From Deltaproteobacteria bacterium (lineage in GTDB: Bacteria; Desulfobacterota; Desulfobacteria; Desulfobacterales; Desulfatibacillaceae): 64,000 bases of DNA. The stretch lies in assembly GCA_016235345.1 (NCBI GenBank), contig JACRLG010000028.1, forward strand, positions 1-64,000. The letters run 5' to 3'. Positions 1 to 13,624 of this stretch are shown one piece after another. Position numbers and translations under genes: made by a program. Numbering within the stretch: position 1 is the stretch's first letter; every line of letters begins with the position of its first letter. Below the pieces are notes generated by a model that worked only from the letters and a program-made list of their open reading frames with translations, was not told the DNA's origin and did not search any database.

Positions 1-204
1 CAGAGGCTACAGGAACATGGGACGAAGGCCAATCGAGACCTTTTTGATCGGCAAAAAGCGGCGGGAGGAACTCTCCGGGGTCGCCGCCTAAAACCACTCG
101 CCCGAGAGGCCAACTGTCCGGCAGGTCCTTGACTTTTACAGTTTGAGGCTCAACTTTAGGCTAATATGCTGCAGAGGCGAGAGTATTGAAAAGAATTCAA
201 TATG

Positions 205-1248
205 TCAGAAAATAATACTTTTAATCTTGTACGATTTTTTGCATTTTCCATCAATCTTGAGCCCTACCGGTGTGTCTATCCCGGCTGGAGCATTTGTGAC
301 TGTTTCACTATTGACTTGTACTTGCATTACTTTAACCGAATACCAATTGTTACTTGAATTTTTGATTAATAGTAGCGATCCAGGTATCAACTCAACACCA
401 CGAGAATAAATACAAACTATGTTATGATTATAAACAGCAATTGGTAATCCATGATCAGTGCCATATTTTGCAATATAATTTATGAAAGTTTGGTTGATCA
501 CCGTTGTAAGGCCTTTACAATACGCGCTTAGCATATCACAATATGGGATAATTTCACTATGAGCAAGCACATTTGATGTATCGCCATGTGCAACCTCATT
601 TCTCCGCACTACAAGATCATTAATCAAGTCAAGAACAGTTTCTGGTCGTTCGTTCGACGCAATACGATCATATGATTTGAGAAAAGCATCAAACTCATCA
701 GTTTTAACACATCTGCGACTTGCTGACTCTATACCTATACGCCCAAAAAACTCATCAACCATTGGAACCCTAAAATTTGAGGTATGGTACCTCATAGATT
801 CAACTATAAACCTATAAGGAATTTTTCCAGAGAGACATCCTGAAAAAGCATCAACAATTTGAATCGCATCATAGCGCCCATCATAGCGACTACCACGTGT
901 GCGCTGAAGGTGGCTTACAGTTAGATCAAAATGAGCTTCCCTGAGCTTATCGGGTAGGGCATCATATGTAGGTGCCACTTTTACTACATTAGTAATGAAC
1001 TCTTCAGCGATTTCCTCAATGAAGCGCTCCAATACCCCATAGAGAAGGACTATTGAGCAGGCATAGTCGTAAGTCCTACCCGGAGAAAAATTTGAAATTT
1101 TGTTTGCCCATTCGAATGCAGGACCGGCAACATTTAAATCAAGAGTCAATAAATGCTTGACCGCCGTAATCTTATTCTCGGATAATTCTGAAAAACATCG
1201 CAAATCATCCAAGCGAGCCAATGCAGTGGAGAGCGCTGCATAATTCAC
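205..1248 (-). CDS. Abi_2/HEPN-like protein with an Rx4H motif, predicted RNase effector; hypothetical.
   Basis: 347 aa ORF in the low-GC module. Motif DLVVRRNEVAHGD matches the HEPN R-x4-H / Abi_2 RN..AH signature. There is a 4-bp ATGA overlap with the upstream DUF262 gene, consistent with an operon. Confidence 0.5.
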   Translation of the reverse strand: MNYAALSTALARLDDLRCFSELSENKITAVKHLLTLDLNVAGPAFEWANKISNFSPGRTYDYACSIVLLYGVLERFIEEIAEEFITNVVKVAPTYDALPDKLREAHFDLTVSHLQRTRGSRYDGRYDAIQIVDAFSGCLSGKIPYRFIVESMRYHTSNFRVPMVDEFFGRIGIESASRRCVKTDEFDAFLKSYDRIASNERPETVLDLINDLVVRRNEVAHGDTSNVLAHSEIIPYCDMLSAYCKGLTTVINQTFINYIAKYGTDHGLPIAVYNHNIVCIYSRGVELIPGSLLLIKNSSNNWYSVKVMQVQVNSETVTNAPAGIDTPVGLKIDGKCKKSYKIKSIIF

Positions 1249-2489
1249 GATAAAATGCTCTCAAAGAGTTTAAAAAAAAGATCATTACGAACTCTTAGGT
1301 TCTCACGATTTGTATAACGTCCTTGGAATTGACTATTCTCAGTTTCATAAAGGTCCCTAATTGCTCTGACTATTTCATCTTTCTTGGCGATTAAGTTCTC
1401 GCTTCGATCAAGAAATTGACTGAGAGCGAACATCAATGGATCGTAAACGACAGTTGTAGGGCGTCTATACCACAGCCATCCTGTTGTTCGCTTACGCCAA
1501 AGAAAAAATGCTTCTTCACCCAAAAGTTGACATGCTAAGTCAATCGTATTTCTAAAGAGACCTTCCAACGCGCTAAGAACTTCTTCGGTGAAGAGATTTG
1601 CTCGTTGTAAATAAATATCCATAAAAATTTTTAATGGCCCATCCTGATTCAATAGTCGTTGACGGTACGCGAAAAATCGAAGAACCAACTCGACATCATC
1701 CATTCGACGAAAAATATCATTTTCACGGGTAATCTCATTAATTTCTCCACCCGCCAACTCAGTCTCATCAGGTTCGGGAATTCCCCACGTTCGACAAAGC
1801 GCAGGGGTTCGACTCAACTTTATGCACAACCGGTTCATCTTGCCATCGAATATTGCATTACGGCTTTCCTGGTCGGACAGGCTTACACCACCACTATTGA
1901 TCCGCTCGAATACTAACTGCTTTAGGCGTTGAGCTTCAGTTGGATCACTAGCGGTTTCGCGCATCAGAACCACTGAAGATAAATATCTGCGATCCACACC
2001 ACGCCGAACAGCTTCTGGTAAAGTCTCATATGTTCGGCCATTTAATTCCGGCCATTCTTCTAAACCCGCCAATATCAATTTGCTCTGATAGAAATCGCTA
2101 ATAGTAGTTAATCGCTGCAATCCGTCCATTACTTCATATTTAGCATAGCCTACTTCATACAAAAATACTGGGGGTATCGGTACGTTAATGATGAATGATT
2201 CAATCAAGCGAGATTTTTTTATGTTGTCCCACCGATGTCTTCTTTGGAAATCCGGGTCGAGCCGATAGTCTGAACTCGCAACCATTTGCGGAATTTGAGG
2301 CAATGGATACCTCGCTTGTTCTGTAACTATTCGGACAGCGCCAGCGTTGTATCTTTCGTTCAAAGCATCGTCACTTGCTTGAGTTGGGTTCGGACCTTTC
2401 TCCACAGTAAAATCGATCTTTTCATTTTCAAAAAGAAAATCTGATTGCATATTCTGAACCATCCCGTGGGAAGAGTTAAAACTTTTCAA
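1245..2489 (-). CDS. DUF262-domain protein (ParB-like nuclease superfamily; GmrSD, SspE or BREX-associated type).
   Basis: 414 aa. Motifs DPDFQRRHRW, LIESFIINVPIPPVFL, MDGLQRLTT (a DGQQR variant) and ERINSGGVSLSDQESRNA are characteristic of DUF262. The gene is low-GC. Confidence 0.7.
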   Translation of the reverse strand: MKSFNSSHGMVQNMQSDFLFENEKIDFTVEKGPNPTQASDDALNERYNAGAVRIVTEQARYPLPQIPQMVASSDYRLDPDFQRRHRWDNIKKSRLIESFIINVPIPPVFLYEVGYAKYEVMDGLQRLTTISDFYQSKLILAGLEEWPELNGRTYETLPEAVRRGVDRRYLSSVVLMRETASDPTEAQRLKQLVFERINSGGVSLSDQESRNAIFDGKMNRLCIKLSRTPALCRTWGIPEPDETELAGGEINEITRENDIFRRMDDVELVLRFFAYRQRLLNQDGPLKIFMDIYLQRANLFTEEVLSALEGLFRNTIDLACQLLGEEAFFLWRKRTTGWLWYRRPTTVVYDPLMFALSQFLDRSENLIAKKDEIVRAIRDLYETENSQFQGRYTNRENLRVRNDLFFKLFESILS

Positions 2490-2699
2490 TATTTCTTTTG
2501 AGCATACTCTCCTTAAAACATAAGAAAATTATGCGGGCTGGGAGAGGAAGGCTCAGAAATCCGTATAGTAGAATATACCAAAAATTGTCAAAATTCAACA
2601 TACATTGAAGAACTTGATCGCTCGGGACGTAAGCACCATCTGAATTACCGGCTTCCCGACCTGCCCAATGAGCCCGAAGTATGCGGCCGGGCAAACGGT

Positions 2700-4787
2700 T
2701 TGATAGCGCGCGCCCTGGCTGCTCTTGCCTCAAGGTTCAACAGCACGGATGTCAAGGTGGACGTGACCGTTGGAAACGCTGCCCGAATATGGAAGCTATA
2801 CGGCACGATGGCGTGCAAGGGTGATGACACCCCCGGCAGGCCACACCGCATAAGCTCCCTGTTTAAAGGTGCCCCCCTGGTACTTGGGGATGTCCCCGTA
2901 TCAGACAGAGATGCGTTGGAGCGACTTGCCGCCACGGCTCCGACTGCTGCAGGAAAGGGTCGGCAACGTCAGCCATCGTCACCCGGAAAAAACAAGTCTC
3001 TTCCTCAAGACGGAAATCTTGGGCCGATAAATATTCCCGCTTATTTGAATCATTACGGTGTCACTTTTAGAGGCACCAAGCAGGAAGGGGCCGCGACGTA
3101 TTATCTGCTGGAAAACTGCGTATTCGATCCTGAGCATACGGACGGCAAGGCCGCCATAATCGGATCTCCTGAGCCCCCCTATCTTTCTTACGCCTGCTTT
3201 CATCAAAGCTGTTCAGGCAAAACCTGGAAGGAAGCCAGAACGGCCATATCCGGCGATGACCCGTTGGCGCGTTTTTGTGACGGATACGACCCTGACTGGC
3301 AACCGGAACGCAAAAAACGAATGTTGCGCGACCGCTCCGGCAATGAGCCTGCGGCGATTTGTGAATCGGCGGGAAATGTTGACAAAAGCAACCTATTTGA
3401 CGTTGATTTTGAGGCCCTGCCTTCAATTCCGACACCCAAAGAAGTTGACCCGCTATTATTTTTCGATCTTGGGCCTGAAGGGAAACGCAAAAGGGGCAGC
3501 TTTGTTGAAATGAAGATGGCGCAATACCTTTCCCTGTATTTTGCGCCCATCCTTAAAACCAACGGAAAATTCTATCAATTTAAAGATGGGGTTTGGAAAA
3601 TCCTTTCCGAGACCGTGATAGAAAAAGCAGTGGCGCATTCGCTGAAAAACCTCTGCAAGGCTCCACATCTGGACAGTTCTATAAGAGTGTTCGGAGCACA
3701 GGTAGGCCAGGAAGAGGAGGAGTGGCCCGATTATCCCAACCTGATCAACTGCAAAAACGGCATGGTGAATATGGAGGCCGACTATTTGGAGTTCAAAGGC
3801 AAGAGCAGAGACGTTTTGCTCCCTCACGATCCCAAGTACGGCAGCCGGGTGCAACTGCCTGTCGAATACGATCCTGAGGCAACGTGCCCCAGGTGGGAAC
3901 AATTTTTACAGGAAATTTTTCCGACAAGCCCGGAAAGGGCGGCTTTGCTGCAGCTATTTTCGGGTTACGTGCTCTTGCCGCATACAAAATTTGAAAAGGC
4001 CCTGTTCCTTTTCGGGACCGGAGCCAATGGCAAGAGCACGGTCATCTCCGTGCTGGAAAAGATACTTGGGCCTGAAAACGTTTGTACTGTCTCATTGAGC
4101 GAGCTCAGCAGACCATTTTCGGTTCTGTCCTTGCAGAATAAGCTGCTTTCTGTGGCCTCTGAAATGGAAACCAAAGAGGCGCAAAGCACGGAGGTTTTAA
4201 AGAAGGTCATATCCGGCGACTCCATATCGGGGGAGGAAAAATTCGGAAAGCGGATCGAATTCAAAAGCTGCGTCAAATTCATGTTCGCCATGAACAACCC
4301 ACCCGCCGTCTCGGATAAGACTGAAGGCTTCAAACGAAAAATTCTGGTGTTATATTTCGACCAGAGGATTCCTGACTCAAAAATGGACAGGGGCCTGGTT
4401 GAGCACCTTGTACGTGAAGAATCCGCCGGGATATTCGCCTGGATGGTCATGGGGGCTGCAATTTTAAACAAGAAGGGCGGCTTCCTGAACCTTGGAAAGA
4501 TTGTTGAAAACGACACGAACAGCTTTATGCATACCTTGAATCCGCTTTTGGACTTTCTGGATGAGAAAACCCACCTGGACCCGGAAGCAAGCGTGCCGAG
4601 TGATGATTTTTATCGGGCGTACAAGGCTTGGAGCGAAGACAGCGGCTTGAGGCCTTTGGGCAAAGTTCAGCTAAATTTGCAGCTTCTAAGCGCCATGCCC
4701 AAGGTGAGCAAGAAAAAGATAACGGTCCCATTCGGTGGAACCGAGAGCCGCCGCCACTGCTATACGGGCATAAGACTTCTGTCATAG
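2700..4787 (+). CDS. Phage/plasmid primase, P4-family C-terminal domain, D5-like NTPase/helicase; probably 5'-truncated.
   Basis: Walker A motif LFLFGTGANGKST and a D5_N-like region. The ORF only opens with TTG at 2700, right at the GC discontinuity. A Prim-Pol C-terminal-like remnant (RIWKLYGT..KG) and a Zn finger (CFHQSC) are present, but no catalytic primase N-terminus. Confidence 0.75.
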   Translation: MIARALAALASRFNSTDVKVDVTVGNAARIWKLYGTMACKGDDTPGRPHRISSLFKGAPLVLGDVPVSDRDALERLAATAPTAAGKGRQRQPSSPGKNKSLPQDGNLGPINIPAYLNHYGVTFRGTKQEGAATYYLLENCVFDPEHTDGKAAIIGSPEPPYLSYACFHQSCSGKTWKEARTAISGDDPLARFCDGYDPDWQPERKKRMLRDRSGNEPAAICESAGNVDKSNLFDVDFEALPSIPTPKEVDPLLFFDLGPEGKRKRGSFVEMKMAQYLSLYFAPILKTNGKFYQFKDGVWKILSETVIEKAVAHSLKNLCKAPHLDSSIRVFGAQVGQEEEEWPDYPNLINCKNGMVNMEADYLEFKGKSRDVLLPHDPKYGSRVQLPVEYDPEATCPRWEQFLQEIFPTSPERAALLQLFSGYVLLPHTKFEKALFLFGTGANGKSTVISVLEKILGPENVCTVSLSELSRPFSVLSLQNKLLSVASEMETKEAQSTEVLKKVISGDSISGEEKFGKRIEFKSCVKFMFAMNNPPAVSDKTEGFKRKILVLYFDQRIPDSKMDRGLVEHLVREESAGIFAWMVMGAAILNKKGGFLNLGKIVENDTNSFMHTLNPLLDFLDEKTHLDPEASVPSDDFYRAYKAWSEDSGLRPLGKVQLNLQLLSAMPKVSKKKITVPFGGTESRRHCYTGIRLLS

Positions 4788-4855
4788 GGCTGAGCCATGC
4801 ACAAATGACGCGAGGAATTAATAAGGGTTGTGGGTTTTAAGGTGGAGCAAGCCCC

Positions 4856-5122
4856 GTGACGATATTTGAAAAAGCCTTAGTACCGGTCTGGAGTACCGTT
4901 GCCGCCGCAGCGCCGTTGTTCGGCATGGGCGAAAGGCGCGTGATAGAGCTTATCCGCTCCGGCATGGTAAAGGGTTATCAGGCGAACCAGCAGGACGACG
5001 CCCGGCGCTCGTGGTGGGTGGACACCAGGAGCCTTGACCGGTATCACGGAGACAGGGCGGCACAATACCAGGGCGAAGCGGATCTTGTGGCGCAGGACGC
5101 CCTTCGCAGGATGCGCAAATGA
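4856..5122 (+). CDS. Excisionase/AlpA-family HTH DNA-binding protein.
   Basis: 88 aa. The GERRVIELIRSGMVKGYQ ... WWVD pattern resembles excisionase/AlpA HTH_17 proteins. It lies immediately upstream of int and overlaps it. Confidence 0.5.
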   Translation: MTIFEKALVPVWSTVAAAAPLFGMGERRVIELIRSGMVKGYQANQQDDARRSWWVDTRSLDRYHGDRAAQYQGEADLVAQDALRRMRK

Positions 5123-6129
5123 ATCCTTCTTGCCCAACAGATAGTCTTCGTGCTACCTTTCCCTCCATGAGACTTTTTGAACGAAACGGCATATGGTACG
5201 TCCAGGTTCGCAGAGGCCAGAAAATCAGCCTCAAAACCTCGGACCGCAAGGTGGCAGAGTCCGCCTTCCGCAAGATGCAAAAAGAGGCTCTTGAGGGTCG
5301 TTTGTTCCAGTTGGACAAATCCGCCCGCATCCCCCTCCGGCAATGGGGAGAGGAATATCTCAAAAGCCGGGGGCACTTGGCTGACGGCACCCTCAAAAAA
5401 GACCGTATGGTCCTGGGGCTTTTGGGCGATGTGATCGGCCACGACATCGCAATTAAAGCTGTGACTAAAGCGAAACTGGACGAGTTCGTCCGCGCATGTC
5501 TCGCCCGTGGCGTATCCAAGCCAGGACTCAACTCCTATCTCCGCCACATCAGGGCCTGCCTCAATGCCGCCGAGGAGGCAGGGTACCTGGAAAAGCCCGT
5601 CAAGACCAAGATGGTCAGGGAGCCTTCCAGGTATCCAGGCATCCTGTCCCCGGAGCAAATCGCACAGGTAATCGCCTATGCCGAAATCCATGACCCGGAG
5701 ATGGCCCGCATAATCCGTTTCGCCGTGTGGACCGGCTGTCGTCGCGTGGAAATCATCGGGCTGCGGTGGGAGCACGTTAAAGGAGACCTTGTCCATATTA
5801 TAGGCAAAGGCGACAAGGAGCGGCACGTACCTCTGCTGTCAGGGGCGCTGGAAGCGATGGGAGATGTCAAGCATATCGGCCCGGTCTTCTGGCAGGTTCA
5901 CCCGGATGTTGTCACCCATCATTTTAAAGACATTGCCCGCGCCTGTGGCATGGAAAACGTCCATTTCCACAATTTAAGGCACAGCTCAGCCACACAGATG
6001 CTTTCTTCCGGGATTCCGCTCCACATGGTCCAGGAAGTTTTGGGCCATTCCAGCATCGCAACGACACAAATTTACGCCAAGGTTTTAAAGGAGACTTTGA
6101 CCAAGGAGATGCAGAAACTCAAGTGGTGA
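5119..6129 (+). CDS. int: Tyrosine recombinase / phage integrase family.
   Basis: Catalytic C-terminal motifs HNLRHSSATQML..GIPLHMVQEVLGHSSIATTQIYAKV and an N-terminal SAM-like domain. Confidence 0.9.
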   Translation: MNPSCPTDSLRATFPSMRLFERNGIWYVQVRRGQKISLKTSDRKVAESAFRKMQKEALEGRLFQLDKSARIPLRQWGEEYLKSRGHLADGTLKKDRMVLGLLGDVIGHDIAIKAVTKAKLDEFVRACLARGVSKPGLNSYLRHIRACLNAAEEAGYLEKPVKTKMVREPSRYPGILSPEQIAQVIAYAEIHDPEMARIIRFAVWTGCRRVEIIGLRWEHVKGDLVHIIGKGDKERHVPLLSGALEAMGDVKHIGPVFWQVHPDVVTHHFKDIARACGMENVHFHNLRHSSATQMLSSGIPLHMVQEVLGHSSIATTQIYAKVLKETLTKEMQKLKW

Positions 6130-6195
6130 TGCACCCAAAAGGCACCCAAGCCGCTATAACCATCTGAAATCATTCACCGCGCCAAAGCACTTAAA

Positions 6196-6245
6196 ATCCC
6201 TCGATTCTTGCAATCGTGCCGGTTCGATTCCGGCTCCGGGCACCA
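6196..6245 (+). other. tRNA 3'-end fragment (T-arm, acceptor 3' strand and CCA), a putative att core repeat of the integrated element.
   Basis: GCCGGTTCGATTCCGGC (T-arm), then TCCGGGC, A, CCA ending at 6245. No complementary 5' acceptor strand or D-arm lies upstream, so it is not a complete tRNA. Confidence 0.5.
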
Positions 6246-6348
6246 GTAAAATCTGTACCACAATCGGTTCTGTCCAGACTGCGGTGGTGGCCTGAAAAGG
6301 CTTGTAAGGCATGCTCCAAGCCATACCGGCCAGCGCGGCCTTGTGCAT

Positions 6349-7860
6349 TTATTGCGGCAGAGCGCTGAAGGTGAGCGATGATTTGCCCTTGAACGCAACA
6401 GTGGCCAGAATGCCGTCCGATGCCGTTGCAAGATATGTGATGTCGGCCTGATCCAGTTGAGCCGATAGAGCGATGCCGTCTTTGATGCGCAAGTTTACCA
6501 GATGCCTGTTGAGCATCGAAAGCCGTTTCGCAACCTCCGCCCTGATGTCCCAGTTGAGTTCACCCTGTATGCTTTTCACAAAATCATCATGCAGAAGGTA
6601 ATCGGCGGTCTTGACCAGAAGATTATAGGTATCAAGGTCGTAGTCGAGCTCCTCCACCCAGAGCCGGTACGTTTCCGGGCTGAAGCGCAGCTTGCCGGTA
6701 AGGAACACGCTTCCCTTGGTATCGAAGGCCATTCCGGGCGAACGGGCGAGGAAATCTGCGCGCACCACGAGCGCCGGGCCGTTGCCGTAAATGTCGATGC
6801 CGGAGAGCGTCACCGTAACGTTCTTTTTTACCTTGTACTTTCGCCCGACCAACACCTTGCCCGCTATTTCCCGCGCCTGGCCGTAGTGGAGCTTGACCGG
6901 CGCGTTAATCACGAAACCGGGCTTTACCTCGCCCTTTTGAAGAGGTGGCAGGGGGCCGACTTCCCGGTCTGCCGGGCATGGCCCCACAAAGGTCGAGACC
7001 AACGCGTTCAAGCCCACAAGGATTCTGACCGCGTCCCCATCCTGGCCGAAACCGGAGTAGCTGAAATGATTCGGCGTTATGACCAGCCAGGTCTCCGGGC
7101 TTTTTGCCAGCAGAAGGGGTTTGCGGCACATCTCCCAGATTCTTTCGGCCTGCGGCCTCAGTTGCACCTTTTCCGGAACTTCCAGGTCGAATCTGGCGAG
7201 CGCCTCGTTCCATTTGGGCTTCACCTTTCCTTCCAGAAGCCCCTGGCAGCTAACCGGGATCAGGCCGAAAAGTTTGAACTCGGCTTTTTGGGCGAGGAAA
7301 TCCCCGACCGTGTTCGTGCAAAGCCGCCAGTCCGGCGTGACGGCGATTGACGAGATTGCCGAAAGGTCCGCGATAACGTCTGCAGTTTCGCGGATACCCG
7401 CCTTTTCCGCAGTGATGGAGCCCTTTAGCCTGGTTCCGATGGAAACCCGGTTGTCATCCACCGATATCGTCAAATCGCCCCGCCTTACATCGGCCCTCCA
7501 TTTGGCGCTGACCGTCGCCACTTTTATGTCATCCTTGAAAACCCCGTCTATGGGCCAAATATCTGTCAGGCCGCCAGCCCCGGTGCCGATGCTTATCTGT
7601 TTGGAAACCACCCCGGACTCCCTGAACTTCTGTGGGACCTTGCTTTCCAGGAGAGCCTTTAAGACATCGATGGGGATGGAAATGGCCATGTTGGCCACGG
7701 AAGCCTGGGGCGGCGGAAGCGCCGGGGACTGAAATTCGCGCGGCCTTATAGGCTCGATGCTTTTGGCGCAGCCCGAAAGCGCCACTGCCAGAAAAATCGC
7801 AAGTATATGGAATAAATATGGATGACGGCCAAAATGCCGACGTTTTGAAAAATTTTTCAT
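6349..7860 (-). CDS. Hypothetical lipoprotein.
   Basis: ORF with a lipoprotein signal MKNFSKRRHFGRHPYLFHILAIFLAVALSGC (lipobox LSGC). Start chosen at the ATG at 7860 rather than the longer ORF-track start. Confidence 0.65.
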   Translation of the reverse strand: MKNFSKRRHFGRHPYLFHILAIFLAVALSGCAKSIEPIRPREFQSPALPPPQASVANMAISIPIDVLKALLESKVPQKFRESGVVSKQISIGTGAGGLTDIWPIDGVFKDDIKVATVSAKWRADVRRGDLTISVDDNRVSIGTRLKGSITAEKAGIRETADVIADLSAISSIAVTPDWRLCTNTVGDFLAQKAEFKLFGLIPVSCQGLLEGKVKPKWNEALARFDLEVPEKVQLRPQAERIWEMCRKPLLLAKSPETWLVITPNHFSYSGFGQDGDAVRILVGLNALVSTFVGPCPADREVGPLPPLQKGEVKPGFVINAPVKLHYGQAREIAGKVLVGRKYKVKKNVTVTLSGIDIYGNGPALVVRADFLARSPGMAFDTKGSVFLTGKLRFSPETYRLWVEELDYDLDTYNLLVKTADYLLHDDFVKSIQGELNWDIRAEVAKRLSMLNRHLVNLRIKDGIALSAQLDQADITYLATASDGILATVAFKGKSSLTFSALPQ

Positions 7861-8032
7861 CACCTGCCTCCTTAACGAGGCCTTCATGGTAACGCCTATC
7901 GTGCATTCTTTCAACAACTGTGGCACGGTGTCCTGAAAGCATTCCACAGAAGGCAGGCACTCAAAAAAAATGCGGATCACCGGCGTGATTGCAGGTACCG
8001 ATCGATCCGGTGGATTTGGAGGAAAGGAAAAA

Positions 8033-8063
8033 CCGGCTTTCGGAAATTGCCAGCCGGTTTAAC
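8033..8063 (-). terminator. Putative rho-independent terminator after the flotillin gene.
   Basis: Inverted repeat AAACCGGCT..AGCCGGTTT (9-bp stem) followed on the minus strand by a T-rich tract. Confidence 0.3.
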
Positions 8064-8122
8064 CTTTCTTAGTCACCCAGGGTATACGAAGATAGAACTG
8101 CCGCAGGGCATTGGGCCAGCCC

Positions 8123-10117
8123 TTACGATTCTCCCCCGCTTTCGGCCTGATCTCCCTTGATCTTGTTGGCGAAAAAGCCCGTGAGCACCGCCGCCAGACC
8201 CTCTATGGCCCCTCCGCCGCCCGAAGCCCCCCCCGCCTGAACCTGGGGCACTATGGAAATCTGGTTTTCCGCAAGGGTCCGTATGACGTTTATAAGGGCC
8301 GTGCCGTCGCGCCCCATCGCCTTCACCTGCTCCTCGTAGCCCTTGGCCTGGGCTAGCCCCGTGGCCTCCACCTCGGCGGCCTTGGCCCTGCCCGTCTCCC
8401 TTATGTAATAGGCCTCGCCGTCAGCCTGGGCAGTGCGCGCCCTCGCGTTGTTCTCGTTGACCTTTATTCCGATCTCAGAGCCTATCAGTTCCTTTTGCTT
8501 GTCGGCCCTGGCCCCGGAGCTTTCCCTGGCCACCCTTTCGTCCTCGGCGAGCTTTTCCTGCTTGTAGGTCTCTATCTGCTGCGCCGCAATTTCACGATCC
8601 TGCAAAACCTTCACGAGTTCAGCCGGAAAAACGACGTCCTGGATATATACGCCCCTGGTTTCAACCTCGTACTTGCCAAGATGCATGGTCACGTGCTCGG
8701 ATGCCTGCCTCTGAACCTCTTGGCGGGTGGAGATGAAATCCACAGCAGCCAGGGTCTGGAGCTTATCCCTCATGTGGTTTCCCACGGCGGCCTGCAAGAC
8801 CTCGTTCACAAGGTTTTGCATTGTTCCCACCATGGAGATTATCTTCGGGGCCTTGGTATCCGGCACGTGAATCTGGACCTGCAGATCGATCTTGAAAACA
8901 AAGCCCTCCTTGCTCTTGGCCTCGATCTGGGAAAGTTTGGAATCAAGGTTGTGCGCCGCAGATGTCGCCGCCGCCCAGTTTAAGGTAAGAATGGAAGTGG
9001 GGACTATCTCAACTTTGTAGCAGCGCGGATTGATGGGGAATTTGCCTGTTCTGAGCGGTTCCTGCCAGATTCCCCTGTGACCGGGGCGCACCAGGGAGCC
9101 GAACTTGAAATTTTCACCGGAGGTGTCCTTGGTGGCCTGGCCCACGTAGGATTTCACAACCGCAACCTGCCCCTGCTGGACCACTGTCATGGGCACAGTT
9201 TCCACCTTCACCAAAAAGGGATTCAAGGCATAGGCCCCGTACATCAAGACGTCGTATTGAAGCCCTATGCGGCCTCCGTTATCGAGAAAAGCCTGGAAAT
9301 CCTGATAGTTGTTATGGAGATCGTTCTTGTTGCCCAAAAGAACCTCTATTAGCTGGGCGTCCGATTTTTCCTCCCTTTCCAGGGTTTCCATGTCATCGAA
9401 ACCGCCCAGTCGGCCTGCGATATCCCCGGACGGCAGAGGATTTCCCTCGAACACGGTGACGATTCCTATAACGTCCGTCACCTCGCCGGGATTGCCGTCT
9501 TTCTGGGGTTCGATGACGGTGAGCCTGAATCGCGCCGGTTCTATTCCAAAGGCGTCCGGGCTTAGATGGCCGTCTCTGGAGGTCCCGGCCCTCAGTTCCT
9601 CGGAAATGGGCACTCCGTAAACGTTATCGGCTGTAACCACCAGGAAAGCCACCGGGTGTATGGGAATCGTTGAACCGGGGGAAAGGACCGGCCTTTGTAT
9701 GCCTTTTTGGCCGCCGTTATTAATGAAGGTGTTGACGTTTCTGAAATCGCCGAACTCCCGCTTGTATTGGGCGGACTTGGCCCCGATGGGAAGCTCGGAG
9801 CCCACCTGGGCTATGACAACCCCTATCTGGCCTGCCGGGACCTGCACCCAGGGATGCTTTTCAACGGCGTACACCGGCCAGAGCATGAACCGGAGGCCCG
9901 GCATTAGAAGCTCGGCCTGATACCCCGCCTCGCCGTTGAACGCTATGGGGTTGTCTCCTTCCAGTTTTTTGACCGCCACGCGCTTAATGACGAGTCCTAT
10001 CTCGTTTTCCCCGATGTTGTGAAGGGAGCGCGAGGTTATGATGTGGGCCGCAATGCAAAGAGCGGCAAAGCAGATCACTATTATGCCAAGCGGGGAAAAC
10101 AGGAAGGAAAGGCTCAT
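8123..10117 (-). CDS. Flotillin-family SPFH/band-7 protein.
   Basis: 664 aa. N-terminal TM segment, SPFH domain and a long coiled-coil Ala/Glu-rich C-terminus typical of flotillin (YqiK/FloT-like). Confidence 0.85.
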   Translation of the reverse strand: MSLSFLFSPLGIIVICFAALCIAAHIITSRSLHNIGENEIGLVIKRVAVKKLEGDNPIAFNGEAGYQAELLMPGLRFMLWPVYAVEKHPWVQVPAGQIGVVIAQVGSELPIGAKSAQYKREFGDFRNVNTFINNGGQKGIQRPVLSPGSTIPIHPVAFLVVTADNVYGVPISEELRAGTSRDGHLSPDAFGIEPARFRLTVIEPQKDGNPGEVTDVIGIVTVFEGNPLPSGDIAGRLGGFDDMETLEREEKSDAQLIEVLLGNKNDLHNNYQDFQAFLDNGGRIGLQYDVLMYGAYALNPFLVKVETVPMTVVQQGQVAVVKSYVGQATKDTSGENFKFGSLVRPGHRGIWQEPLRTGKFPINPRCYKVEIVPTSILTLNWAAATSAAHNLDSKLSQIEAKSKEGFVFKIDLQVQIHVPDTKAPKIISMVGTMQNLVNEVLQAAVGNHMRDKLQTLAAVDFISTRQEVQRQASEHVTMHLGKYEVETRGVYIQDVVFPAELVKVLQDREIAAQQIETYKQEKLAEDERVARESSGARADKQKELIGSEIGIKVNENNARARTAQADGEAYYIRETGRAKAAEVEATGLAQAKGYEEQVKAMGRDGTALINVIRTLAENQISIVPQVQAGGASGGGGAIEGLAAVLTGFFANKIKGDQAESGGES

Positions 10118-10592
10118 TTAGATTTCCTCTTCGTTAACCGGTTATAAGACACCATCCCGAAGATATTGAAACTCACCGTCAATGCCCGCGCGACAGCAGG
10201 TGATCAATCATTCGCGTCCTTGCATTATGCTTTCAGGACGAAAACGTCAGGACATACATACTTCTTGCCTGTTCCCGTGCCCGTTTGAACCGGCAAGAGC
10301 GCGGTAGCAATTTTGTTTCAAGATATCAGCGCCTACCATATTCGACATGTTTATCGCAACATTTTCAGCGTAAATCGTCTGGCGGGCTTCGAGGGAAGGC
10401 GGGGTGTGCTTGCTTTGGGGCGGACGGCTGGCAAGGCCTGACGTGTGACGATCTGTAAAGCGGGTCCTGATCCTTAAACAAAAGCGACGGATCAAAGCCT
10501 TATCCGTAATTCTTCCTGTTGCGCTCCATGCTTCTTCTTCCTTTCCTTCATTTTTTTTCATGACCATGAAACTTACATTTTCAGGAAGCCTG

Positions 10593-10838
10593 CTATTGGT
10601 TGCCGTAGCCGTTAAGTTGTGAGCATTCCGGGCACTGCCACTGGATGCCGTTGCAGCTTAGGGTCCAGAAATTCTCGTCCATGCAGGGCTGGCACATGGC
10701 GAACCCGCACCGGCAGGTCCAGCAGAAAAGGTATTCCTTTTTGCACAACTGGCAGACCCGGTTCCTGGCCCGCCTGCCGGGCCGCCCCTTTTCCGCCCTG
10801 ACCGGCGAAACCTCGTCTTTTGGCCTGTTTTCGTCCAT
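10593..10838 (-). CDS. Small Cys-rich zinc-ribbon protein.
   Basis: Four CxxC-type pairs (CQLC, CWTCRC, CQPC, CPEC). GGAGG lies 9 nt upstream of the internal ATG at 10838. The longer TTG-start ORF to 10940 is less likely. Confidence 0.45.
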   Translation of the reverse strand: MDENRPKDEVSPVRAEKGRPGRRARNRVCQLCKKEYLFCWTCRCGFAMCQPCMDENFWTLSCNGIQWQCPECSQLNGYGNQ

Positions 10839-10974
10839 TCCGTCATCCTCCAAGCGCCCTGCCCTCCTGTTTGAGCCCTTCCGCATCGCGTTCTTGAGAT
10901 TGCAGACAATAGATGATAGGAATTTTGGAATCAACCGCAAGTATTACGCACCCCAAAATAGCGAGCCCCAATTC

Positions 10975-13624
10975 ATGCCCCAGTCATTTTACATCATAGA
11001 CGGATCCGCCTTCATCCACCGGGCCTATCACGCGGTGCGCGGGCTTTCCACATCGAAGGGCTTTCCCACAAACGCGATTTTCGCCTATACCCGGATGCTC
11101 CTGGCGCTCATGCGCGACAAGCGCCCGGATTACGCCGTGGTGGTTTTCGACGCCAAAGGCCCCACGTTCCGGCACGAAATGTACGAGGCATACAAGGCCA
11201 ACCGGCCGCCCATGGACCCGGAACTTGCCATGCAGGTCCCCTACGTGCGCACCATCACCGGGGCGCTTTCCATTCCATACATCGAACTCATAGGCTTCGA
11301 GGCCGACGATATCGCCGGAACCCTTGGGAAACAGGCCCTTGGCCACGGCCTTGACGTGGTTTACGTAACCGGCGACAAGGATTTTCTTCAGCTTGCCGCC
11401 CCCGGCGTTTCGATAATGGACCCCATGAAGGAGACCTTCAAGGATTACGGGACGATCAAATCCGAGCTTGGCTTCGAGCCCGCGCGTTTCCGGGACGTGC
11501 TGGCCCTTTGGGGGGACAGTTCCGACAACATTCCGGGCGTTCCGGGAATCGGCGAAAAAACCGCGATGGCGCTTATAAAGGAATTCGGAAGCCTTGAAGG
11601 TGTTTACGAAAACCTCGACAAGATCACCAAAAAGAAGCAGAAGGAAAACCTTGAATCAAGCCGGGAAAACGCGTTTTTGAGCCTTAAACTCGCAACCATC
11701 GATACCAATGTTCCGGTGGAGTTTTCGCGGCAATCCCACAAGCCGGGGGAGCCTGACCGGGAAAAACTCGCGCCGGTTTTCGAGGAGCTGGAGTTTTCAA
11801 AGCTCGCTGCGGAATTTGCGGTGATGGCGGAAACGCCGCCCGCCCCCGTCCTCCCCCCGCCGGAATACGTGAGCATCACCGACGAGGACGCCCTTACGGC
11901 CCTTGCCGCCGAGCTTTCCCGATGCGCCGAGTTTAGCCCTGGTGGGCATCAGCCTCGCCACCGGCCCGGGCCGGGGGTGGTACGTCCCGGTGGATCACAC
12001 GGCCCTTGCCGCCCCCAGGCAGGCGGGCCTTGAAAGCGCTCGCCGGATTCTCGGCCCGGTATTTGCCGACCCGCGCATCAAAAAGGTGGGCCAGAACATC
12101 AAGTACGATCTCATCGTGCTGGTTCGACACGGTTTTAAAGTGGAAAACATAGCCTTCGACACCATGATCGCCTCCTACCTCTTAAATCCCTCCTCCCGCG
12201 CCCACGGCCTGGACAGGCTTGCCTCCGACCTTCTGGGCCACAGGATGATCCCTTACGAGGAGGTGGCCGGAAAGGGCAAGGGGGAGGTAGGCTTCGACCA
12301 CGTGCCCGTAAAGGAGGCCACCGCATATTCGGGCGAGGACGCGGACATCACATTGCAGATCAAGGAAAAGCTCGCGCCCATGCTGGAGGCCGAGGGCCTT
12401 TCAAGCCTTTTCGCGGAAGTGGAAATGCCCCTGGTGAGGGTTCTGGCGGATATCGAGATGAAGGGGATAAGGGTTGACACCGATCATCTGAAAACCCTGT
12501 CCCGCGAGTTCGAGGCGGAGATGAAAACCGTGGAAGCCGCGATTTTCGGGCTTGCCGGAGGCCCCTTCAACATCGCCTCGCCCCAGCAGCTCGGCCACGT
12601 GCTCTTTGAAAAGCTGGGCCTGCCCACCCAGAAAAAGACCAAGAAGAAAACCGGCTACTCCACCGACGCGGCGGTTCTGGAGCAGCTTGCGCCCAGCCAC
12701 GAGCTTCCGGCCCAGGTGCTGCGCTACCGGACTCTCGCCAAGCTCAAATCCACCTACGCCGACGCCCTTCTTTCCCTGGTGAACCCGCATACGGGCCGGG
12801 TCCACACTTCCTTCAACCAGAACGTGGCCGCCACGGGCCGCCTTTCAAGCTCGGACCCCAACCTCCAGAACATCCCCATCCGCACAAAGGAAGGCCGACG
12901 CATCCGCGAAGCCTTCATACCGGAAAAGGGAATGGTGATGTTTTCGGCTGACTACTCCCAGATCGAGCTACGAGTCCTGGCCCACTGCTCGAACGACCCG
13001 GTTCTGATCGACTCCTTCAAAAAAAACGAGGACGTGCACACCCGCACGGCAAGCGAAATTTTCGACCTCGACCCGGCCTTTGTGACGGGTGAGATGCGCC
13101 GGCAGGCGAAAAGCATCAACTTCGGCCTCATCTACGGCATGGGGGCGTTCAAGCTCTCAAACGAGCTTGGAATCAGCCAGTCGCTTGCCAAGCGCTACAT
13201 CGAGCGCTACTTTTTAACGTACCAGGGCGTGAAACGCTTCATGGACCTTTCCATCGAAACCGCGCGGGCCACCGGGAAAACCACCACCCTCATAGGCCGC
13301 ATCCGGCGTCTGCCCGCCATAAACGGCAAGGACCGGGTGGAGCGCGAGGCGGCGGAGCGCATAGCCATCAACACCCCCATCCAGGGAACGGCGGCGGACA
13401 TCATAAAAATCGCAATGATCCGGGTTCAGAACGCCCTTATCGAACGGAAGATGAAAACCGCCATGCTGCTTACGGTTCACGACGAGCTTGTTTTCGAGGC
13501 CCCGCCGGATGAACTTTTAGAGGCGAAAAGCCTTGTGCGGGATTTGATGGAAGGGGCGATGGAGCTTCTGGTGCCGCTAACCGTCAACATGGCCGAGGGC
13601 GAAAACTGGGCAGAGGCGCATTGA
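10975..13624 (+). CDS. polA: DNA polymerase I, interrupted by an apparent frameshift near 11905-11935 (5'-3' exo in frame 1; 3'-5' exo-like and polymerase domains in frame 2).
   Basis: N-terminus MPQSFYIIDGSAFIHRAYHA at ATG 10975. The downstream frame carries KVGQNIKYD, RVHTSFNQNVAATGRLSSSDPNLQNIP, QIELRVLAH and VHDELVFE, collinear with E. coli PolI. The two frames overlap at 11903-12033. Confidence 0.85.

Follow-up and report, generated by a model that had tools for sequence, protein, structure and literature searches.

What kind of element places a tyrosine integrase gene beside half of a tRNA gene, and what has become of the element's other end? This question is raised by the left end of a 64-kb stretch of DNA from a deltaproteobacterial genome (contig JACRLG010000028.1 of assembly GCA_016235345.1, positions 1 to 64,000; hereafter the window), where an integrase gene is followed on the same strand by the 3' portion of a tRNA. 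The region from ~2630 to 6245 is probably the integrase-side half of a small integrative element that once replicated autonomously, entered a tRNA-Leu(UAA) gene in its anticodon loop, and has lost its left half. A sequence-only reading of the same DNA had already proposed an integrative element with its integrase next to a displaced tRNA 3' fragment without a 5' half, and this proposal is borne out by reading of the sequence, by ARAGORN on a designed fusion, and by domain matches. The locus is an ordinary genomic island relic, and the mechanism is standard tRNA anticodon-loop integration. By itself the locus matters little, since it is one more decayed tRNA-gene island in an uncultured deltaproteobacterial genome. 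The main added value lies in the fragment coordinates 6189-6245, in the recognition of a truncated primase gene, and in the finding that position 142 is not an attachment (att) boundary.

The tRNA-Leu(UAA) fragment and the integration site

The integrase-side end of the element is composed of the following features, all on the plus strand.

4856-5122, +: 88-amino-acid (aa) winged-helix protein of the excisionase family, conserved directly upstream of the integrase (MBI5845720.1)
5119-6129, likely start 5167 (320 aa), +: tyrosine integrase (PF00589 4.9e-28; PF13102, Phage_int_SAM_5; MBI5845721.1)
6130-6149, +: arm-type site pair, GCACCCAA at 6131 and 6142, 11 nucleotides (nt) apart, starting from the integrase stop codon
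6150-6188, +: spacer of element origin, from the arm sites to the core, not tRNA-like on reading, with a branch of the Logan assembly at 6188|6189
6189-6245, +: displaced 3' portion of the chromosomal tRNA-Leu(UAA) gene, the attR site, identified by sequence reading, shuffles, ARAGORN on a fusion, and the Logan graph
6190-6196, +: anticodon loop and presumed crossover core (CTTAAAA, anticodon UAA)
6197-6201, +: 3' strand of the anticodon stem (TCCCT)
6202-6217, +: class II variable arm, 16 nt (CGATT CTTGC AATCG T)
6218-6234, +: T arm (GCCGG TTCGATT CCGGC)
6235-6241, +: acceptor 3' strand (TCCGGGC), followed by the discriminator base at 6242 (A) and CCA at 6243-6245

The T arm, acceptor 3' strand, discriminator, and CCA are perfect at 6218-6245. 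This combination occurs once in the window, and none of 100 shuffled sequences reproduced it with three mismatches allowed. The tRNA-like sequence, read by eye, starts at 6189/6190 (A at 6189, then CTTAAAA), and the bases to the left of this point are unable to pair with the 3' strands of the fragment. Fusing a designed complementary 5' half to 6190-6245 led ARAGORN to report an 88-nt tRNA-Leu(taa), whereas the same program found no tRNA in the native sequence 6100-6300. Consequently, the fragment is a genuine 3' portion of a class II tRNA-Leu(UAA), 56-57 nt long, running from the anticodon loop to CCA and lacking a 5' half. The sequence-only reading had placed a 50-nt fragment at 6196-6245; the fragment stands, and its extent has to be revised to 6189-6245. 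A complete tRNA at 6150-6245, which was considered at the time as the alternative, was found by neither ARAGORN nor Rfam. ARAGORN over the whole 64-kb window gave no complete tRNA, and Rfam gave no match over 1-12000 and only a weak T-arm match when 6150-6270 was searched alone.

Exact, mismatch-tolerant, and local-alignment searches revealed no second copy of the fragment in the window, and neither the window nor 11 relatives yielded a tRNA 5' half. A split tRNA, with its 5' half at the left junction, was considered and rejected: positions 100-141 look vaguely like a 5' half and yet allow no pairing with the fragment, and neither joining 1-141 to 6189 onwards nor circle-junction joins produced a tRNA. 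A separate 34-nt stretch at 9528-9561 (+) resembles positions 6211-6241 of the fragment (AATCGCGCCGGTTCTATTCC...GGC.TCCGGGC), with 18 of the first 20 bases identical. It lies inside an SPFH/Band 7 gene (8123-10117, minus strand), and the likeness is probably due to chance. In a plasmid collection searched with the whole region, only DUF262 and tRNA-like scraps were matched.

An independent assembly provides a further view of the fragment. In the Logan data for run SRR12113407, contigs match the window at 100% identity; one of them spans 112-6218 unbroken, and the next begins at 6216. Logan is built from 31-mers, outputs each 31-mer once, and leaves contigs below 150 bp unreported (PMC12424806). 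All 27 of the 31-mers within 6189-6245 are absent from both contigs, so that positions 6189-6245 would form a 57-nt graph node of their own, branched at both ends and too short to be reported. The same 57 nt, which extend from tRNA position 31 to CCA, are therefore present in at least two contexts in the sample, as expected if a complete tRNA-Leu(UAA) gene exists elsewhere.

The integrase appears intact. The start at 5167 agrees with the NCBI call and with the homologues, and R208, K230, H284, R287, H310, and Y319 are invariant in a 30-sequence alignment of the window protein with 29 homologues. In NCBIfam the protein is XerC/D-like with scores below the cutoffs, and it also matches the integrase family phrog_1. 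Its 69 homologues come mostly from Desulfobacterota metagenome genomes, together with a few viral contigs; this XerC/D-like family is little described, and the window copy is an additional member.

The 88-aa protein is likely a recombination directionality factor, a putative assignment based on family profiles and gene position. The window copy alone matches no family in Pfam, PADLOC, PHROG, or NCBIfam scans. Within its family, HTH_17 is found in 12 of 15 members (best 3.3e-6) and Tn916-Xis in 4 of 15, the family profile matches the Tn916 excisionase (Xis) structure 1y6u (E 0.019), and the position just upstream of the integrase gene is kept in many loci.

The arrangement beyond the integrase is shared with related loci. 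The repeat GCACCCAA has only two copies in the window, and an equivalent pair with 11-nt spacing follows the integrase stop codon directly in most relatives. In its commonly observed form, the layout comprises the integrase stop codon, two direct repeats of 7-9 nt set 11 nt apart, a spacer of ~40-60 nt, a tRNA fragment on the strand of the integrase that begins in the anticodon loop, and a hairpin terminator after CCA. It is found in the closest relatives (L004, L029, L027, L024, and L015) and in many other loci, with differing tRNAs. The junction falls at the anticodon-loop position in at least 13 relatives with seven other tRNA species, as follows.

Leu-UAA: window, L027
Leu-CAA: L012
Arg-UCU: L004, L024
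Arg-CCU: L029
Arg-ACG: L118
Thr-CGU: L005, L010, L011, L014, L015, L116, L119
Lys-CUU: L013, L117
Phe-GAA: L023

Judged by these relatives, an integrase beside a displaced fragment is the normal layout of the family and no sign of decay. The signature of stop codon, repeats 11 nt apart, spacer, and anticodon loop is reusable for precise island mapping in Desulfobacterota genomes.

Other loci display the remaining stages of the cycle. In L027, L116, L119, and L114, arm pairs lie on both sides of an element-borne tRNA half and terminator, as expected of an attP-like configuration, and mobile-element DNA flanks both sides; the latter three are viral contigs. The far end of an integrated element is seen in L019, which reads intact tRNA-Thr(CGU), terminator, arm pair, ~4 kb, Xis-like gene, and integrase. 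From these relatives, the attP of the window element would have had the order integrase, arm pair, spacer of ~40-60 nt, anticodon-loop core, element-borne tRNA 3' half with terminator, and second arm pair. Integration would have rebuilt a complete tRNA at the integrase-distal end, reading tRNA, terminator, and arm pair, and would have left the original chromosomal 3' half beside the integrase as the fragment at 6189-6245. The window contains a single arm pair, at 6131-6149, and no second one.

The truncated primase gene and the AT-rich cassette

The features to the left of the excisionase-like gene are as follows.

142-2630, -: AT-rich block (41% GC) in place of the left part of the element, with a two-gene cassette and a promoter-like site at ~2560-2600 (-)
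205-1248, -: HEPN protein of the RiboL-PSP type, 347 aa, predicted RNase effector (PF18735 3.5e-18, PF18737 5.6e-12; MBI5845717.1)
1245-2450, -: DUF262/ParB-like (GmrSD_N) protein, 401 aa in NCBI and Logan (PF03235 1e-24; MBI5845718.1)
2622-4787 (open reading frame, ORF, 2700-4787), +: 5'-truncated primase/helicase gene (D5_N, DUF5906, Pox_D5; MBI5845719.1, 676 aa)

The primase/helicase gene retains the D5_N domain, the superfamily 3 (SF3) helicase P-loop domain, and the Pox_D5 C-terminal domain, and its product scores 173 bits against TIGR01613 ('phage/plasmid primase, P4 family'; cutoff 108.7). The first usable starts are TTG at 2700 and ATG at 2757, with no start codon before 2700. The closest relative is L004, whose integrase is 70% identical and whose primase/helicase has 870 aa. 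In a tblastn comparison, that protein aligns from window position 2622 with 62% identity over its residues 156-866, and similarity at the DNA level starts abruptly at ~2633, which places the edge of homology at 2622-2633. An N-terminal extension of 167-190 aa with an SGNGxH motif precedes the position of the window ORF start in 18 of 19 relatives, and an alignment of 16 full-length proteins has D113, D115, and S156-G-N-G-x-H161 without variation. At the breakpoint, the window reads SGRKHH, a degraded SGNGxH; the DxD motif is gone, and unrelated AT-rich DNA lies upstream. Judged against these relatives, the gene lacks its first ~155 codons, including two conserved motif clusters. The lost motifs (DxD, sGxGxH, and a later acidic residue) would resemble the active site of archaeo-eukaryotic-type primase-polymerases. 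Neither the missing 5' part nor the other genes of the L004 element occur anywhere in the window. A simple insertion of the cassette into the primase gene is rejected on the same grounds, as the missing 5' part is neither adjacent nor elsewhere in the window. The truncation justifies the description of the element as degenerate in the sequence-only reading, and MBI5845719.1, annotated as a 'hypothetical protein' of 676 aa, is a primase/helicase without its N-terminal part. The five proteins MBI5845717-MBI5845721 (locus tags HZB23_13730 to HZB23_13750) are annotated in a 'Deltaproteobacteria bacterium' metagenome genome on a contig of 383,290 bp.

The GC content is 58% at 1-141, 41% at 142-2700, and 53% at 2700-6188, compared with 56.6% in the rest of the window, and the shift coincides with the primase breakpoint at ~2630. 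Within the AT-rich block, the DUF262 frame is open up to 2489, and a minus-strand site at ~2560-2600 has the appearance of a promoter. The DUF262 protein matches PADLOC NsnA (1.1e-60), PD-T4-2_A (5.7e-33), and phrog_2598 (8e-58); the HEPN protein has no PADLOC match at E <= 0.01. The two genes are predicted to form a PD-T4-2-like defence pair. Homologues of either gene are absent from ~190 fetched loci encoding related integrases or primases. For this reason, the comparison identifies the block as a separate cassette that replaces the left part of the element, and not as the usual cargo of such elements. The view of the AT-rich DNA as cargo is accordingly abandoned, given also that the block abuts the truncated gene. 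A PD-T4-2-like cassette lying over the replication gene of the element is a small example of defence genes persisting where a mobile element has been disabled.

Downstream of the HEPN gene and outside the AT-rich block, a minus-strand hairpin at ~55-88 (GGCGGCG...CGCCGC, then TTTTTG) could terminate the DUF262-HEPN transcript. It was not flagged in a terminator scan because of its long loop.

The left edge and competing histories

One feature remains to the left of the cassette.

1-141, strand not assigned: GC-rich stretch (58%), with the hairpin and T-run (-) at ~55-88

Peptides from all six frames of 1-141 had no match among 5.8 billion proteins. The stretch has no second copy in the window, no similarity to the related loci by blastn or tblastx, no arm repeat, and no tRNA sequence. 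Searches for sequence to the left of base 1, through the neighbouring DUF4403 protein in genome contigs and through a left-flank 41-mer in metagenome contigs, recovered nothing. A break is present at 141|142 in both assemblies: the start of the Logan contig at 112 corresponds, with k = 31, to a branch at this point, and the other branch of this contig lies at 6188|6189. A widely used metagenome assembler also has 141 as the upper limit of its default k-mers. Because the GC-rich head is exactly 141 nt long and the Logan contig starts 30 nt before 142, positions 1-141 are probably a shared branch node of the assembly graph, with the window starting at the first base of the contig. In that case, the deposited contig would not be extendable, and the sequence next to 141 would differ between at least two contexts in the sample. 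Since the AT-rich block abuts a primase gene without its first ~155 codons, the left edge at 142 is a rearrangement or an assembly-graph junction and not an att boundary. The start at 143 in the sequence-only reading, which had left the boundary undecided, is therefore not retained.

Under the reading of a half-lost element, the element would have lost the first ~155 primase codons, along with its second arm pair, the restored tRNA, and whatever regulatory genes it had. The 2.5-kb cassette of 41% GC, with its promoter-like site, its DUF262 gene (ParB-like NTPase/sensor), and its HEPN gene, would have taken the place of these parts. The remnant would no longer prime its own replication, and it would be unable to excise unless attL survives further left. 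The data are compatible with three histories, namely a replacement or deletion sparing the restored tRNA, a nested insertion that splits the element so that its remainder lies further left, and loss of the whole far end including attL. A cell normally needs tRNA-Leu(UAA) to read UUA codons, and for this reason we lean towards the survival of a complete copy of the tRNA-Leu(UAA) gene at some place further left.

Several points weigh against the half-lost element or its details. The far end, with the restored tRNA and the second arm pair, is not seen at the window locus, and the data do not distinguish between the three histories (replacement, nested insertion, and attL loss). No tRNA was found in the 10 kb upstream in each of L005, L014, and L023, which means that element sizes vary or that remnants are common. 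The primase-polymerase label rests on the shape of the motifs and on a faint LigD_Prim-Pol match in L115 (E 0.058), and PDB sequence searches with the missing N-terminal domain of the relatives gave nothing significant. Apart from the truncation, the helicase ORF shows no damage and is free of frameshifts across ~700 codons; a truncated helicase of this kind may still be expressed and useful, in which case the term 'decayed' would be overstated.

The half-lost element has to be weighed against readings in which less has been lost. The element may simply be larger than the window, with the AT-rich genes as ordinary cargo, a complete tRNA-Leu(UAA) gene carrying the 57-nt direct repeat to the left of base 1, and attL and attR both intact. 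The attP/attL architecture of the family predicts exactly such a left end, the same sample has the 57 nt in another context as well, and deletion of the restored tRNA-Leu(UAA) would be expected to be selected against. However, the AT-rich block cuts into the primase gene instead of lying between genes, bases 1-141 carry no arm repeat, tRNA sequence, or likeness to related elements, both assemblies break at 141|142, and all attempts at leftward extension yielded nothing. On balance, a larger, intact element is nearly as easy to accept as to doubt. Taken at face value, the same assembly breaks suggest a different picture, in which 142-6188 is a discrete unit present or absent in the population, either a mobile defence mini-element or a recent acquisition, with its true left end at 141|142 and no canonical attL. 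The unbroken Logan contig from 112 to 6218 places branches exactly at 141|142 and 6188|6189, the first 141 nt fit a branch node at k = 141, and the integrase and Xis-like genes are intact. Nevertheless, the left junction has no direct repeat, arm pair, or tRNA 5' half, and joining 1-141 to 6189 onwards makes no tRNA. In addition, the unit would combine DNA of two compositions, 41% and 53% GC, that meet within a broken gene, and the contig start at 112 could equally be due to a variant (polymorphism) at base 111 or to a repeat that ends at 141. A discrete unit of this kind thus appears unlikely. The bolder version, a still-active 6-kb helper-dependent defence mini-element that moves, or is present or absent, without rebuilding of the tRNA or a long left direct repeat, is suggested by the branching of both assemblies at its ends and by the undamaged integrase, Xis-like gene, and helicase ORF. 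It would be more improbable still.

Bases 1-141 may alternatively be the end of a multi-copy insertion sequence (IS), in which case its insertion, together with a deletion next to it, would have eliminated the element's left part. A repeat at this place would account for the stop of both assemblies at 141|142. The stretch ends in ...CAG (G at 141), so that its reverse complement begins with CTG and does not give the TG start of an IS3-type terminal repeat; as a point in favour of an IS, this is at best very weak. No transposase or other protein was matched in the six-frame search of 1-141 described above, no second copy is present in the window, and it is the AT-rich cassette, not the supposed repeat, that abuts the broken primase gene. 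An origin of the left edge in an IS is consequently highly doubtful.

Relation to known systems and to other loci

Phage HP1, which integrates at a tRNA-Leu gene, is an example of the anticodon-loop class of integration. Williams reportedly described this class in 2002 as the 'anticodon-loop sublocation', a term in use in the literature, with the 3' part of the tRNA carried in attP. The window shares with it a tyrosine recombinase, a block of 57-nt identity from loop to CCA, arm-type repeats, and an excisionase-family partner, and its relatives also share the element-borne tRNA 3' half and terminator in attP. The differences concern the integrase, which is short, XerC/D-like, and so far found mainly in Desulfobacterota metagenome genomes, and the arrangement, as the integrase of the closest relatives lies beside the displaced fragment and not beside the restored tRNA. 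In the window, the far end has been lost.

The sequence-only reading had also called the element P4-like and its small gene an AlpA-like xis. The first label holds for the C-terminal domain of the primase (TIGR01613), and it fails for the integrase, which is XerC/D-like, and for the crossover. Satellite P4 integrates at the 3' end of leuX, whereas the presumed crossover here lies in the anticodon loop of tRNA-Leu(UAA). P4 and P4-like islands share with the window this C-terminal part, a small size, the combination of an integrase, a small DNA-binding partner, and a replication gene, associated defence genes, and a tRNA-Leu target. In contrast, the integrase of the window has 320-336 aa with only PF13102 and PF00589, and lacks the Arm-DNA-bind_3/DUF4102 domain of the P4 type (~400 aa). 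The N-terminal domain of the full-length relatives carries DxD and SGNGxH motifs typical of archaeo-eukaryotic primase-polymerases, a type other than that of the P4 alpha primase domain. AlpA (PF05930) is matched neither by the 88-aa protein of the window nor by its family, whose matches are to HTH_17 and the Tn916 excisionase, and the AlpA label is to be dropped. General library scans turned up no genes like sid, psu, delta, cnr, or epsilon, and no dedicated search for them was made. The element is not P4-like in the sense of membership.

For the cassette, the closest comparison in composition is PD-T4-2, which consists of DUF262 and a PF18735 HEPN protein (Vassallo et al. 2022, as summarised in PMC10952713). 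The window has adjacent DUF262 and PF18735 HEPN genes, the former with the PD-T4-2_A match given above; however, the DUF262 protein scores better to NsnA, and the HEPN partner is without a PADLOC match. Menshen, in which NsnA is followed by the ABC ATPase NsnB and the effector NsnC (PMC12065111), was considered and rejected, as the NsnA-like gene is followed by a HEPN gene only, with neither an NsnB ATPase nor NsnC.

The relative with the same target, L027 (JGI Ga0401362_0001492, 15,414 bp), has a 54% identical integrase, a tRNA-Leu(UAA) site, a nearly identical arm repeat (TGCACCCAAAATGCAACCA), and the same order of Xis-like gene, integrase, arms, and core. Unlike the window element, it is inovirus-like (Zot, SSB, Coat_B, and CI repressor), has no D5 primase, and is in the attP configuration with both arm pairs. 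The ORF at its contig end runs on in frame into the ORF at the contig start, giving 407 aa together, as would be expected of a circular genome.

Two further layouts were observed among the relatives. In L017 (3274-3500), L016, and L006 (3744-3953), the integrase, arms, and spacer are followed by the reverse complement of an anticodon loop and tRNA 5' half, of Thr-CGU or Arg-ACG, with a sigma-70-like promoter; L017 has another arm pair (AATGCGCACAAAATGCGTGCAC) on the far side of this promoter. A site of this type would be an attP carrying a tRNA 5' half and its promoter instead of the usual 3' half, a polarity of which we know no description. In L009, L018, L026, and L114, the integrase and arm pair are followed by a reverse-complement terminator and tRNA, 3' end first, which is the classical order with the integrase adjoining the tRNA. 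The tRNA is Lys-CUU or Thr-CGU, intact in L026 and a fragment in L009, L018, and L114.

Some target tRNAs are seemingly occupied by more than one element (L119, L029, and L117). In L119 (~10708-11040), the Thr-CGU attP-like site has a Lys-CUU fragment behind it. In L029 (2940-4297), the Arg-CCU fragment is immediately followed by a 451-aa integrase in convergent orientation, and both L029 and L117 (~11180-11230) have a different repeat pair (GTGTGTGA, twice) after the tRNA terminator. A motif with GTGAC/GTCAC (TCACGAAA-like) recurs at least five times, in either orientation, in the left non-coding region of L004 (218-540); the copies may serve as operators or iterons, and the window has nothing comparable. 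Finally, at window position 11938, a Logan contig of the same population has 40 extra bases and is otherwise 100% identical, which is an indel or a repeat-number difference between the assemblies.

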